The translations under genes and the position numbers were made by a program. A stretch of 64,000 nucleotides of DNA, taken from assembly GCA_964463915.1 (NCBI GenBank), contig CAYXEH010000002.1, forward strand, positions 22,038 through 86,037. The letters are read 5' to 3'. Under the pieces are notes generated by a model, which saw only the letters and a list, made by a program, of their open reading frames with translations, was not told where the DNA came from and searched no databases. The stretch is from an uncultured Bacteroidales bacterium (GTDB taxonomy: Bacteria; Bacteroidota; Bacteroidia; Bacteroidales; UBA7960). Shown piece after piece: positions 30,531 to 37,923 of the stretch (its first letter is position 1; each line of letters starts with the position of its first letter).

Positions 30531-30941
30531 ATGCATTACAATTGTGCCCTGACAGTCGACTGCGTGGTTTTTTCAAAAGATGGAGTCGTGCTGATCAGAA
30601 GAAAAAACCCACCCTTCAGGGGGGCTTATGCCCTGCCAGGAGGATTTGTGGAAGAAGATGAATCCGTGGAAGAAGCCTGCATCAGGGAAACCCTGGAAGA
30701 AACAGGCCTTGTTATCCGGAATCTGAAGCTGGCAGGTGTTTACTCAACTCCCGGGAGAGACCCCAGGGGACGTACAGTCTCCGTTGCTTTTGTAGCTGAA
30801 GCCGACCTGAATGCCTTGCAGGCAGGAGATGATGCTGCTGAGGCAGAGGTTATTAAAGACTGGGAGGATACCGATCTTGCATTCGACCATAAAGAGATCA
30901 TTGCAGACGCACTGAAAATCAGGGGAACTCCGGTTAATTGA
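30531..30941 (+). CDS. NUDIX hydrolase
   Basis: Nudix box GGFVEEDESVEEACIRETLEETGL. Confidence 0.9.
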   Translation: MHYNCALTVDCVVFSKDGVVLIRRKNPPFRGAYALPGGFVEEDESVEEACIRETLEETGLVIRNLKLAGVYSTPGRDPRGRTVSVAFVAEADLNALQAGDDAAEAEVIKDWEDTDLAFDHKEIIADALKIRGTPVN

Positions 30942-31305
30942 ACCAGAGAAAATGACCAGCCCGTAACTGCAAAACGGAATACGGGACATTTCTATGATTT
31001 TTTTGCTTCTAAAGGCATTATTTATTCAATTAAAATTCTTAATATTGTAACTACAAGTAAGGTAAACCGAAAATAATCGGTGATCTCTCCTCCCGGACTA
31101 CCGTTTTTGGGACTTCTGAAGGCTTCCTTGCCTTCAATCCAGACCAATTATTCATTCCCGGGAATGCACTGCCAGGGTTCAGACAGTGTCATTTCATCCT
31201 CAACCCGCTGAAGAACCTGTTTTCTTTTTCAGTGTACAAATCTTTCCCTGAAAGTTTTATGACAGAATCGATCTGTCCTGAAATGCCACACAAAAAAAGT
31301 AAACC

Positions 31306-31857
31306 ATGGCAAATTTAGTTGCAGAATTAAACACGTTAGACTTTAACGTCTACATCGGAGGGCCGCTTCAGGCAGCGGTCCAGGCACAACACGCCGCTTC
31401 CATGTCACAAGTCAGCTTCATCCAGGAAGTAGGCTTTGAGAATGACAAACTGCGATATGTAGATTTCGCATATAGCAAATCGATCCCAAATGAGGACAAC
31501 ACCGCTTTCGTGGAAAAAAGTGTAGAGATCAGGGTTCCGTTTCTCACCATGCTCGTGATTCCTTCATTGAGAATTGAAGAAATGACCATTGATTTTAATG
31601 CAAAGCTGACTTCCACCGAAACAGCCAATGTCTCCAAAGAGTTTGCAGCTGGTACAGAACTGGGCATCAATTTTAAGATGGTCAATTTTAAAGCCACCGC
31701 ATCCTACAAAAGAACCTCCTCGAGAGGTACCAAAACCGAGAAAACCTACAACCTGGGAGTCCACGTGCTGGCTGTCAATGATGAAATACCGGCTGGCCTT
31801 GACAGGATACTCACCATGCTCGAAGACAGCATTGCAAGTATAGAGCCAGGCACCTAA
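31306..31857 (+). CDS. DUF2589-like protein (gene 1 of the orphan three-gene operon)
   Basis: 183 aa. N-terminal helix YIGGPLQAAVQAQHAA, then VPFLTMLVIPSLRIEEMTIDFNAKL, which fits my recollection of the DUF2589 pattern. No signal peptide or TM. Ser/Thr/Lys-rich loop TASYKRTSSRGTKTEKT. Confidence 0.55.
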   Translation: MANLVAELNTLDFNVYIGGPLQAAVQAQHAASMSQVSFIQEVGFENDKLRYVDFAYSKSIPNEDNTAFVEKSVEIRVPFLTMLVIPSLRIEEMTIDFNAKLTSTETANVSKEFAAGTELGINFKMVNFKATASYKRTSSRGTKTEKTYNLGVHVLAVNDEIPAGLDRILTMLEDSIASIEPGT

Positions 31858-31907
31858 ATCGCCCCCCGGCCTGCACAATACGGGTATGTGAATTAACAAC
31901 AGAACTT

Positions 31908-32612
31908 ATGGTGAAACTCAGAGATTATATTGGAAGTATCGTTGCCAGCATCGCTGAGGCAAGGGTCATGTCGGATGTGCAAACAGTGGAAGTGGCAGAG
32001 CAATATGCACGGCACGAGCTGCTTAAACATTTCTCAGTGCCACGTATGCGAATTGAGGATGTGGAACTGACTATCCCCGTTGCCCTTGCAGCAGCGGATC
32101 CAAAAGAAACAACGGCATACTCTCCCATCGACAACAGGACTTTCAACGCCCTGGCTTACAGAGAGCTGGTAAACAGCATCGGCAGAGAAAGCCTGCCCAG
32201 GGATGTGTCACTTAAAATGCAGAAGTATCTTTCAGCAAGGACCGCCGAGCTTGAGAAGAAAATCAGGGTTTCTGCCACGACAGAGGCAGTGGACAAGTAC
32301 TGCATGGATATAGTTGACCGGGTGATGAAACTGGCAAAACAGCATAACCTGATCGAAGCAAAGCTTCAAAAAAAAATCAATCCCGAAGCAATACAGCAAA
32401 AACTCGGACAGACCCTGACAGGGGAGATTCAGTTCAGGGAGGTAAAAAAATCCCTGGAAGACTTGAATGTCGTTGCCGAATCGCACTTGCTCAGGGAGGA
32501 GAAACCCGAAAACATCATTTATATCAAGGTGAAGATCTCCGAGGAAAGCATGGAATGGAGCCGGGCTGAGAACAGTGAAGGCGGAGTGGATTCAAAACTG
32601 CTTCCTGAATAA
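31908..32612 (+). CDS. DUF2589-related protein with a long helical insertion (gene 2 of the operon)
   Basis: 234 aa. Shares with gene 1 an N-terminal YIG-helix (DYIGSIVASIAEAR) and a P-x-h-R-I-E-acidic strand (VPRMRIEDVELTIPVAL). About 110 aa of charged helical sequence lie between these and the C-terminal strands. 50-nt gap after gene 1. Confidence 0.5.
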   Translation: MVKLRDYIGSIVASIAEARVMSDVQTVEVAEQYARHELLKHFSVPRMRIEDVELTIPVALAAADPKETTAYSPIDNRTFNALAYRELVNSIGRESLPRDVSLKMQKYLSARTAELEKKIRVSATTEAVDKYCMDIVDRVMKLAKQHNLIEAKLQKKINPEAIQQKLGQTLTGEIQFREVKKSLEDLNVVAESHLLREEKPENIIYIKVKISEESMEWSRAENSEGGVDSKLLPE

Positions 32613-32629
32613 TCTAAACCGGAGAACAC

Positions 32630-33202
32630 ATGCAAAAATCCAAACTGAACCTTATTAAGTGCCTGAAAGAAATGCTTCTTGAATATCCTGATGTCGTCAC
32701 GGCTTTTGAGAAGAAAGATCCGCGGGCAAAAGACAAATTGCTCAAATGGATCAGGCAGGCTGAAACCGTCATGAGCTCTTACAACATCAGTGAGGTTTCT
32801 GAACTGGCAGGGCTAAGGAGCAAGATCATCAGCCCGCGTTTCACTGAGCATAAACGATCCTCCGCAAGAAAAATACAGACACAGGTCGCTGCATCAGTGT
32901 TATACGACATCCAACACATCGTGATTTCTGCATTAAAACCTCACGAAGATCGTGCAGAAGAATGCAGGGACGTAATCAGGCAGCTTCTGCAGATAATAAG
33001 TCAGAACGGAACGGTACAATATCGTAATGAAGTTCTTTTTGAGCATTTTGTTCTTCAAGTATGGCAGCTTATCAAAACAAATGAACAACTGCGTCCGGGA
33101 GCAGCAAAATTAAAGGCTCTGCTGCCGGACACTGACATTCATTTGCTGATTGCAGAAGAGATCAACCCCGCGGATTTTATCCCAGCCACTCACCAGGCGT
33201 AG
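32630..33202 (+). CDS. hypothetical all-helical protein (gene 3 of the operon)
   Basis: 190 aa, 17-nt gap after gene 2, helix-favouring composition. No recognisable motif, TM or signal peptide. Confidence 0.5.
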   Translation: MQKSKLNLIKCLKEMLLEYPDVVTAFEKKDPRAKDKLLKWIRQAETVMSSYNISEVSELAGLRSKIISPRFTEHKRSSARKIQTQVAASVLYDIQHIVISALKPHEDRAEECRDVIRQLLQIISQNGTVQYRNEVLFEHFVLQVWQLIKTNEQLRPGAAKLKALLPDTDIHLLIAEEINPADFIPATHQA

Positions 33203-35724: not shown

Positions 35725-37923
35725 TCACTCCGGAATTATTCCTGCAACCCTTTCCAGCAAGGTGATCGCATCACCCTGCCCTTCGAGAATATACCTGGCA
35801 TCGGTATGGGCCCGACCGACCTTTACCGACCAGGCATGGTCGGGCATGGTCTGGAACAACAACTCATCAGACCATCCGGCACCGACAGCAAGGATAAAGT
35901 CGTATTTCTTGCGGGATAGCCAGTGCATGGCCAGCTCTCCTTTGTTTACACCCGCACTGCTTACTTCGATCACCTTGCTGCCATGCAATACCTGGGCACT
36001 GTTATTGGTGGTGATGGAAAGCAGGTGGTCATTCACCTCTTTAACCAGTTGGGATGCCTGCTCCACGTCTGCCTTGTGATAGTGCCAGGCCACCGAGTAA
36101 TCACGTTCCTGGATGTATGCACCAGGCAAGCGGTCGGTGTACATTTCCAATATGGGCAATACTTCCTCCTTCCATCTTGCCGACAACGGCTTGAGCAACC
36201 GCCAGTTTTCACCCACCTCCCGGATATACGAACCATGCTCGGCTGTGAGATTCACCGGCAAACTACCAAGCCATTCCTCCAGTTCATCCTTGCCACGGCC
36301 ACTAATGATTACAATATCTGTGTTCTCCTGGGCATCCAGCTCTTTCAGCATCCACATCAGTGCTTTGGGAGGCTCGGCAGCCGAGGGGTACTTACTGTAA
36401 GGGACCAGGGTGCCATCGTAATTGACAATGATGATCCTGCTCTTTGCATTACGGTAATTGTCGAGCAGCTTCATTTGCAAGTCTTCACCCAGCAGTTTTC
36501 TTGAGGCGGCATAATTGGAGTATTTACTGGATTCTTTTAAGCTGCCCACAAAATCCGTGGCCCATTTGGTTACGTCATAACGGCGTAACCGTTCCTGCAT
36601 CAAGGTATTACCGCGCACCTGTTCCTTCATGGGAATGATCAATGCCTCGGCAATCGCATCGGCGATCTCATCAATATTGTTCGGATTGATTACCACCGAT
36701 TCGCTCAACTCTTTGGCAGCCCCGGTAAACTCACTAAGTATCAGCACTCCTTTCTGGTCTATCAGGGAAGCGATATATTCCTTGGCTACAAGGTTCATTC
36801 CATCCCGCAAGGGGGTCAGCAAGGCCACATCACTCTTTCTGTACTGGGCGATCAGCTGCTTATGTGGCAGAGAGGTGAACTGATAGATCACCGGGGTCCA
36901 GGTCATGCTGCCATAAGTGCCATTGATATAACCCACAAGCTCATCAAGCTGGCTCTTGATTTTGCGGTAGGCCCCCACGGCAACCCTGGAAGGAACCACG
37001 ATCATATACATGGACACCTTTCCGTGCCACTCCGGGTGATCCTGCAAAAACCTTTCAAAACCATATAAACGGTTGACGATCCCTTTGGAATAGTCAAGGC
37101 GGTCTACCGACAGAATGGATTTCGGCTTTCTTGCCCCGGCCTTTTTAGATGGATAAGGAGACACATCCATGGTATGAAATTTCTCAAAATCGATCCCCAT
37201 CGGAAAAGTATCCACCTCGGCCACATGATCCGGGAGGTATATTCTGCCCATATGATTGTCCATCCCCAGTATTCTCAGCACACAGCGTAAAAAGTACTGG
37301 GCGTAATCATGGGTATGAAAGCCAATCAGGTCGGCTCCCAGCAATCCTTCCAGGATCTCTTCACGGCTGCCTTTCTGAAGCATCCGGTACATTTCGTAGG
37401 TCGGGAAAGGAATGTGAAGGAAAAACCCAATGGGGTTGGATATCTTTTCGCGAAGAAGGGCGGGCAGTAGCATCAGATGATAATCGTGCACCCATACAAC
37501 ATCACCAGGACGGATCTCTTTCAGCAGTTCATCACGGAAAATTTCGTTCATCCGCTGATAGTCATGCCAGTACTCTTTTCTAAAGCGTGCGAAATGAGGA
37601 AAGTAATGGAACAAGGGCCATATGGTTTTGTTACAGAAACCCAGGTAGACATTGTCCATCAACTCCTTTGATAAAAAGACGGGGACGGCGCTGAACTCCT
37701 GGCTGACCTTTTCCCGCACGATGTCTTCATCCTTTTTATCGACACTCATGCCGGGCCATCCCATCCACACATACTCCTCAATATCACTTTCCTCATGGCC
37801 CAAAGACTTCAGGTAATCACTGAGTCCGGATACCAGCCCACCAGCGCTCTTGGTGGTCACATATTCTCCGTTCTCCTTGCTCACAGCAACCGGCAACCGG
37901 TTTGATACAATCAATAGCCTCAT
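35725..37923 (-). CDS. otsA: bifunctional trehalose-6-phosphate synthase (GT20) / trehalose-6-phosphate phosphatase fusion
   Basis: N-terminus MRLLIVSNRLPV..GGLVSGL (GT20). C-terminal HAD motif IIIVNYDGTLVPY and a T6PP-like tail. Confidence 0.9.
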   Translation of the reverse strand: MRLLIVSNRLPVAVSKENGEYVTTKSAGGLVSGLSDYLKSLGHEESDIEEYVWMGWPGMSVDKKDEDIVREKVSQEFSAVPVFLSKELMDNVYLGFCNKTIWPLFHYFPHFARFRKEYWHDYQRMNEIFRDELLKEIRPGDVVWVHDYHLMLLPALLREKISNPIGFFLHIPFPTYEMYRMLQKGSREEILEGLLGADLIGFHTHDYAQYFLRCVLRILGMDNHMGRIYLPDHVAEVDTFPMGIDFEKFHTMDVSPYPSKKAGARKPKSILSVDRLDYSKGIVNRLYGFERFLQDHPEWHGKVSMYMIVVPSRVAVGAYRKIKSQLDELVGYINGTYGSMTWTPVIYQFTSLPHKQLIAQYRKSDVALLTPLRDGMNLVAKEYIASLIDQKGVLILSEFTGAAKELSESVVINPNNIDEIADAIAEALIIPMKEQVRGNTLMQERLRRYDVTKWATDFVGSLKESSKYSNYAASRKLLGEDLQMKLLDNYRNAKSRIIIVNYDGTLVPYSKYPSAAEPPKALMWMLKELDAQENTDIVIISGRGKDELEEWLGSLPVNLTAEHGSYIREVGENWRLLKPLSARWKEEVLPILEMYTDRLPGAYIQERDYSVAWHYHKADVEQASQLVKEVNDHLLSITTNNSAQVLHGSKVIEVSSAGVNKGELAMHWLSRKKYDFILAVGAGWSDELLFQTMPDHAWSVKVGRAHTDARYILEGQGDAITLLERVAGIIPE

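Follow-up and report, generated by a model that had tools for sequence, protein, structure and literature searches.

A conserved three-gene operon led by a DUF2589 gene in Bacteroidota and Gammaproteobacteria, with candidate components of a cytoplasmic assembly

Introduction

What do three small neighbouring genes do that have stayed together across two phyla and whose products resemble no enzyme, membrane protein or secreted protein? This question is raised by a locus at positions 31306-33202 of a 64,000-nucleotide stretch of DNA, referred to here as the window, from an uncultured Bacteroidales bacterium (contig CAYXEH010000002.1 of assembly GCA_964463915.1, positions 22,038 to 86,037 of the forward strand). 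The three genes, named g1, g2 and g3 in the following and together referred to as the trio, had been singled out in an earlier note as a possible undescribed system, for which roles in defence, in the stress response or as a toxin with its partners were considered. We find that the trio is a genuine and widespread module of no known kind, two of whose families are already catalogued as domains of unknown function (DUFs). We propose, with a probability that we put at roughly 0.4, that it is one ancient, chromosomally stable module, in which the g1 protein is made in excess and self-associates, and in which g2 and g3 are co-translated accessories of a cytoplasmic assembly. The proposal is based on the slow evolution of g1, the confinement of length variation to loops, a partner protein that looks like a paralogue, a 5' leader, a hairpin following g1, the coupling of g2 and g3 and the lack of enzyme, membrane or secretion features.

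Results

The first gene of the operon, g1 (31306-31857, forward strand), codes for an acidic protein of 183 amino acids (pI 4.9), which we presume to be the major subunit. It matches the Pfam family DUF2589 (PF11655) with a score of 108.2 bits (gathering cutoff 23; E=6.4e-31), and residues 17-174 cover positions 6-153 of the 154-position profile, and the family assignment given in the earlier note holds over the full length of the family. Our searches returned 729 g1 homologues. Close relatives of g1 were sought in one genome per GTDB species and were found in at least 149 bacterial species. Across the best 80 of these, which span two phyla, the median identity to the window proteins is 69% for g1, 41% for g2 and 40% for g3, and g1 thus evolves far more slowly than its two partners. 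In the alignment, 83 of the 183 g1 columns are invariant across the two phyla; these include polar positions on both faces of the alternating beta segments. g1 has amphipathic beta segments rich in serine and threonine; an alternating pattern by itself does not distinguish a beta-barrel pore-forming toxin from other proteins. Such invariance, extending to polar positions, fits a protein with many protein-protein interfaces. Differences in g1 length are restricted to a single loop, which holds between 0 and approximately 45 additional residues.

The second gene, g2 (31908-32612, forward strand), codes for a protein of 234 amino acids belonging to an AF_0414-like family. The Pfam entry PF27375 'AF_0414', which is named after a gene of Archaeoglobus fulgidus, is recorded among precomputed matches for 24 of 64 g2 homologues (44-52% identity to g2), one of them marked as weak; this model is newer than our local Pfam copy, and the window protein itself has no recorded PF27375 match. 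The g2 family is large and diverse: a HMMER scan of sequences clustered at 50% identity yielded 1253 representatives at a cutoff of E<=1e-3, of which 761 also pass E<=1e-10. An AlphaFold2 (AF2) model of g2 calculated from a 124-sequence alignment reached a predicted local distance difference test score (pLDDT) of 94.3 and a predicted template modelling score (pTM) of 0.71. In this model, a long N-terminal helix (residues 4-35) precedes a beta sheet, which is composed of one strand (51-60) and three C-terminal strands (203-233), and a four-helix bundle is inserted between these parts at residues 76-171. Members of the family range from 234 to 420 amino acids in size, and the differences are limited to the helical insertion. 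In the longest homologue (L222:4001-5263; 420 amino acids), the insertion is approximately doubled and the N- and C-terminal core is kept. That length varies only in one loop of g1 and in the insertion of g2 is what would be expected for exposed parts of an assembly. A Foldseek search with the g2 model retrieved no relative from the PDB (best E=0.35, template modelling (TM) score below 0.3) or from viral protein models (best E=0.065, TM score 0.2).

In the earlier note, g1 and g2 were described as two related DUF2589-like proteins. This description could not be upheld as worded: BLASTP did not align g1 with g2, and the PF11655 profile matched neither g2 nor, even at E<=10, any of 27 g2 homologues. 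What the two proteins do share is a likeness at the level of a motif. Profile-profile comparison with hhalign yielded a single stretch of 19-32 columns with a probability of 1.8-5.5%, for which the E value fell from 0.028 to 0.007 when deeper profiles were used. It aligns VPFLTML.IP.LRIEE.TIDF in g1 with H.LLKHFSVPRMRI.DVELTIPVA in g2. In both proteins, the motif is found at the same topological place, past the long N-terminal helix and entering a beta strand, which makes a distant common ancestry of g1 and g2 plausible.

The third gene, g3 (32630-33202, forward strand), codes for a basic protein of 190 amino acids (pI 8.8) without an assigned family, a putative helical orphan. A helix-turn-helix of the MerR/CueR type appeared plausible by eye in g3 (NISEVSELAGLRSKI), and was discarded: a shallow g3 profile aligned to CueR with E=0.8-1.6 and no stretch passing, and the signal was gone with a 42-sequence profile. 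Neither g2 nor g3 produced a match above noise in the local Pfam, NCBIfam, PHROGs and PADLOC libraries, and a single PADLOC hit of g2 to PDC-M64B (E=0.007) was rejected as a chance match, as it occurs in one of 124 family members and is missing from the 123 others. When the PDB was searched with sequence profiles of the three families, whether shallow or deep, nothing but noise came up (uL5, VP35, designed helical repeats, SPP1), which for g3 means no PDB relative. Homology to a characterised complex, named beforehand as the finding that would speak against a novel system, was therefore looked for and not found for any of the three proteins in Pfam, NCBIfam, PHROGs, PADLOC or PDB profiles, or with Foldseek in the case of g2, and searches of the literature on DUF2589, PF11655, PF27375, DUF805b (see below) and AF0414 turned up nothing beyond passing mentions, two of them of DUF2589. 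No transmembrane segment was found in any of the three proteins: the maxima of a Kyte-Doolittle scan over 19 residues were 1.27, 0.87 and 1.15 for g1, g2 and g3, respectively, none exceeding 1.6, compared to 2.86 for the MscS channel encoded nearby. g1 has no signal peptide, and the trio proteins carry no secretion signals. The description of the trio as a compact module of uncharacterised proteins with no enzyme family or transmembrane helix is supported.

The trio is found far beyond the close relatives of the window organism. The best 80 species belong to Flavobacterium, Tenacibaculum, Kordia, Nonlabens, Chryseobacterium, Cyclobacteriaceae, Balneolia and Ignavibacteria, and, among the Gammaproteobacteria, Rheinheimera, Lysobacter/Thermomonas, Alteromonas, Thalassolituus and Oceanobacter. 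The order g1-g2-g3 is complete in 85 of 87 loci, the remaining two being cut by a contig edge, and a distant trio has kept the order DUF2589-g2-g3 at identities to the window proteins of only 34, 27 and 22% for g1, g2 and g3, respectively; the likewise very distant locus with the 420-amino-acid g2 (L222) has retained this order too. The flanks vary from genus to genus and are syntenic within genera, namely in 14 of 15 Tenacibaculum loci, 10 of 10 Rheinheimera loci and 7 of 8 Flavobacterium loci (upstream side), and also in the Lysobacter group. In a sister species (locus L096; g2 84% and g3 71% identical), the trio lies amid the same genes for MacB/FtsX, an HI0933-like protein, a NUDIX hydrolase, MscS and an aldehyde dehydrogenase. 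The shared site in the sister species and the synteny within genera show that the trio has been inherited vertically over long periods. At the same time, the window g2 is equally close to its homologues in Rheinheimera and in Cyclobacteriaceae, and identities that do not track taxonomy in this way indicate old transfers between phyla.

A foreign origin of the window copy had been suggested on the basis of a GC content of 33-52% within the operon against 53-58% in the flanking genes, a contrast that turned out to be overstated. At the gene level, GC is 46.1% for g1, 48.3% for g2 and 44.9% for g3, compared to a mean of 49.5% (standard deviation 2.2) for the 36 other long open reading frames (ORFs) of the window, corresponding to z values of -1.6, -0.6 and -2.1. 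With a difference of approximately 3 points, an identical site in the sister species and syntenic flanks within genera, the idea of a foreign origin has no support.

By aligning the regions upstream of the orthologous loci, we identified a shared block that corresponds to the DUF805b RNA (Rfam RF02914), reportedly a candidate cis-regulatory 5' leader from the motif collection of Weinberg et al. 2017. The motif is located 15-32 nucleotides before the g1 start codon in 68 of the 80 species loci and is present in both phyla; examples are L027:5943-5977, L062:5946-5986 and L048:5946-5980, and the scores in orthologous loci reach 47.3, 42.8 and 40.6 bits (gathering score 35.6). All five stem pairs show two-sided changes, 84.8% of the alignment cells are paired and none of 500 shuffles reached the observed covariation. 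In a genome scan with the motif core (at least 120 loci), nearly all of the matches listed came from Bacteroidota. Elsewhere, DUF805b is found approximately 20-25 nucleotides 5' of genes for type IX secretion system (T9SS) substrates, rhodopsins, outer-membrane beta-barrels, SPFH proteins, HU-like proteins, PixA inclusion-body proteins and bacteriocin-like peptides; among the matches listed, one of 122 occurrences elsewhere precedes a DUF2589 gene. None of 109 sampled downstream proteins contains a DUF805 domain, the name of the motif notwithstanding. Because the genes behind it are so diverse, we read DUF805b as a generic Bacteroidota element of the 5' untranslated region, and several of these genes presumably encode typically abundant proteins. 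The trios of the Gammaproteobacteria have kept the motif, which suggests that operon and leader left the Bacteroidota together.

A second feature of the expression architecture lies directly behind g1. The spacer between g1 and g2 was analysed in 76 loci, made up of 72 of the 80 species loci, the window, L099, L220 and L222. The spacers have a median length of 64 nucleotides and fold with a median z-score of -3.4. Directly behind the g1 stop codon, 68 of the 76 loci have a strong hairpin (-8 kcal/mol or lower), and in 26 of those it is followed by a T run and thus resembles a terminator (examples of spacers are those of L062, L048, L027 and L013). The hairpin sequences differ between lineages, indicating that the structure rather than the sequence is conserved. 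Hardly any gap separates g2 from g3; its median in the orthologues is 4 nucleotides.

The window copy itself is organised somewhat differently. Its g1-g2 spacer has a z-score of -1.05 and contains a weak stem-loop (31859-31891, forward strand; -8 kcal/mol) without a T run, at the place where most orthologous loci have their strong hairpin. At gathering score, no Rfam family matches anywhere in the window, and between positions 30900 and 31400 DUF805b is absent even at E<=10. Nevertheless, the region upstream of g1 is conserved over approximately 300 nucleotides with the sister species (L096:5051-5397), which, given the missing DUF805b, suggests a different leader; a lineage-specific leader or regulatory region may have replaced the motif. 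A small hairpin, ACCGAAAATAATCGGT, at approximately 31066-31081 and the block CCCGGGAATGC.CTGCCAGGGTTCAGACAGTGTCATTTCA are visible in this region. A simple scan of the window region for promoters, in which terminators were scanned too, gave no excess over the shuffled expectation.

The physical layout described in the earlier note was confirmed. The three ORFs lie on the same strand, have the lengths given above and are separated by gaps of 50 (g1-g2) and 17 nucleotides (g2-g3). They are preceded by a non-coding region of 364 nucleotides (30942-31305, forward strand) that would hold the promoter and the leader, and upstream of which the NUDIX gene ends at position 30941. The distance to the MscS gene, given as about 175 bp, is correct for the 309-amino-acid start used in public gene calls (177 nucleotides) and is shorter, 129 nucleotides, if translation begins at the 325-amino-acid start. 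The neighbours are, as described, a NUDIX hydrolase, MscS and an aldehyde dehydrogenase. In the sister species, a glutaminase gene (L096:4136-5050) that is absent from the window is found between the NUDIX gene and the trio. Near the MscS gene, a 732-amino-acid ORF on the reverse strand (35725-37923) resembles by eye a fused trehalose-6-phosphate synthase/phosphatase, and together with MscS this putative enzyme raises the prospect that the neighbourhood may serve osmoadaptation.

Discussion

In the model we favour, the part of the major subunit falls to g1, which would be abundant and associate with itself. g2 would act as a low-copy partner, sharing with g1 the N-terminal helix and the 'VP..RIE' strand motif and carrying the variable helical bundle as an insertion, and g3 would be a low-copy accessory made together with g2, for instance an assembly factor, a regulator or a cargo protein. 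The unequal stoichiometry, the physical interaction of the three proteins and the self-assembly are properties that we infer from the features described above. Distant DUF2589 genes, too, are found in clusters of paralogues, such as A. fulgidus AF0414-AF0417, which speaks for the model. Going one step further, one might speculate that the trio builds an intracellular structure not recognised so far, that is, a self-assembling scaffold or compartment of a new class, in which DUF2589 is the major subunit and which would be widespread in Bacteroidota and Gammaproteobacteria and have paralogue clusters reaching into the Archaea; we regard this extension as doubtful.

Several points weigh against the model of a g1-dominated assembly. 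The interaction and the polymerisation of the proteins are predictions. The high conservation of g1 could equally reflect its binding to a conserved cellular partner, and the hairpin following g1 could be a stabiliser of the transcript without an effect on stoichiometry. The AF2 model of g1, calculated from a shallow alignment of 21 sequences, has a pLDDT of only 42.6 and its fold is thus unreliable, and the g2 model is unlike any known structural or filament protein among the PDB entries and viral models compared with Foldseek. Finally, the window copy is atypical, with no DUF805b motif and a weak spacer hairpin, so that the argument from expression is carried by the orthologues.

An alternative, which we consider unlikely though it fares best among the rival explanations, is that the trio provides protection under stress or particular growth conditions at a cytoplasmic or membrane-peripheral site, in the manner of phage-shock or SPFH proteins; the task of g1 would be to coat or buffer a cellular structure, under the control of g2 and g3. 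Regulation of distant DUF2589 genes by growth conditions fits such a role: the A. fulgidus genes AF0414-AF0417, 'DUF2589 related genes', are up-regulated on lactate (PMC3949148), and a DUF2589 gene of Bacteroides fragilis is listed among carbapenem-responsive genes (PMC11402942). These expression data come from distant paralogues, however. SPFH genes are also led by DUF805b, and signalling genes are found in the vicinity of DUF2589 genes in two settings. Plasmids carry only distant (approximately 30% identical) DUF2589 genes, often as pairs of paralogues, and in two cases, Fulvitalea pFA8 (L092) and Francisella pFSC454 (L095), these lie directly 3' of response-regulator/histidine-kinase genes. 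Around the chromosomal trio, for which 130 proteins encoded in the flanks were sampled across 26 distinct contexts, HATPase_c is the commonest Pfam domain (8 proteins), followed by GNAT (4), APP1 (3) and response regulator domains (3), all of a housekeeping type, but the histidine-kinase neighbours may reflect a few lineages only. Moreover, no trio protein resembles PspA, Vipp1, SPFH proteins or any known stress protein in sequence or in fold.

The housekeeping character of the same neighbours bears on a second alternative, put forward in the earlier note, according to which the trio is an anti-phage or abortive-infection module whose small proteins form a membrane-damaging or otherwise toxic complex upon infection. 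We consider this improbable. No PADLOC family was found in more than one of the 130 flanking proteins, and no recurrent proximity to known defence genes or mobile elements was seen in the 26 contexts. In favour, an AbiJ-like gene lies at a distance of approximately 4 kb in one locus. PADLOC also has no match for g1, for g3 or for 21 diverse DUF2589 proteins, and the PDC-M64B hit in a single g2 family member is discussed above. The compact and enzyme-less layout, the amphipathic beta segments of g1 and the slightly low GC content are features that a defence module could have, and the same applies to the spread across phyla without regard to taxonomy; but the sites are syntenic within genera and shared with the sister species, no viral contig carries the trio or a relative, and phage records contain one match of 29% identity, in a contig of 4 kb. 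Defence genes tend toward rapid diversification, and a protein as conserved as g1, at 69% identity between phyla, would be unusual among their products. That the trio is a toxin-antitoxin-like set, with one toxic protein neutralised by the others, is the least probable of the explanations: although its small proteins are co-transcribed, one of them acidic and one basic, with g2 and g3 nearly contiguous, there is no match to a toxin-antitoxin family, each locus has a single copy whose site does not change within a genus, the viral, phage and plasmid sequences searched lack the trio, conservation is very high and an expression architecture in favour of the leading gene would be unusual for a toxin.

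We now return to the model of an assembly dominated by g1 and ask what it would mean. g1 is conserved at a level usual for core machinery, and g2 has a confidently predicted fold that lacks a solved or viral relative. If the model is correct, a new intracellular assembly would exist in well-studied genera of environmental bacteria and fish pathogens, among them Flavobacterium, Tenacibaculum and Lysobacter, and DUF2589 would gain a function. Irrespective of this, the trio allows a clean test of the orphan DUF805b leader across phyla, as the gammaproteobacterial copies keep the motif.

Taken together, the trio can be placed among several known groups of genes. The small-protein candidates of PADLOC (PDC-M64) are short, enzyme-less and encoded by several genes like the trio, which differs from them in lacking a consistent match to a hidden Markov model and a defence-island context. 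With other DUF805b-led operons, the trio shares its leader in the orthologous loci, which match the covariance model, whereas the window operon does not, and the motif also stands before genes of many other kinds. Related by family are the DUF2589 paralogue clusters, such as A. fulgidus AF0414-AF0417 and those on plasmids of Fulvitalea axinellae and Streptomyces sp. WAC00288, in which a DUF2589 gene likewise adjoins genes for small proteins of the DUF2589 or AF_0414 type. These clusters are functionally uncharacterised, as is the trio; their plasmid-encoded partners are, unlike those of the trio, not detected by g2 or g3 profiles, and the trio forms a distinct and much more uniform subfamily.

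The operons for gas vesicles (gvpA), chaperone-usher fimbriae (fimA/papA) and R-bodies (reb) place the gene for the major subunit first. The trio has no sequence or structural similarity to these systems, contains no secretion signals and is known here from its genes alone. In its layout, however, it is alike: the first gene is small and very conserved, a hairpin comes behind it, and the accessories encoded further on would be made in lower copy number, and the resemblance extends to the paralogue-like partners and to a pattern of conservation that fits many subunit interfaces.

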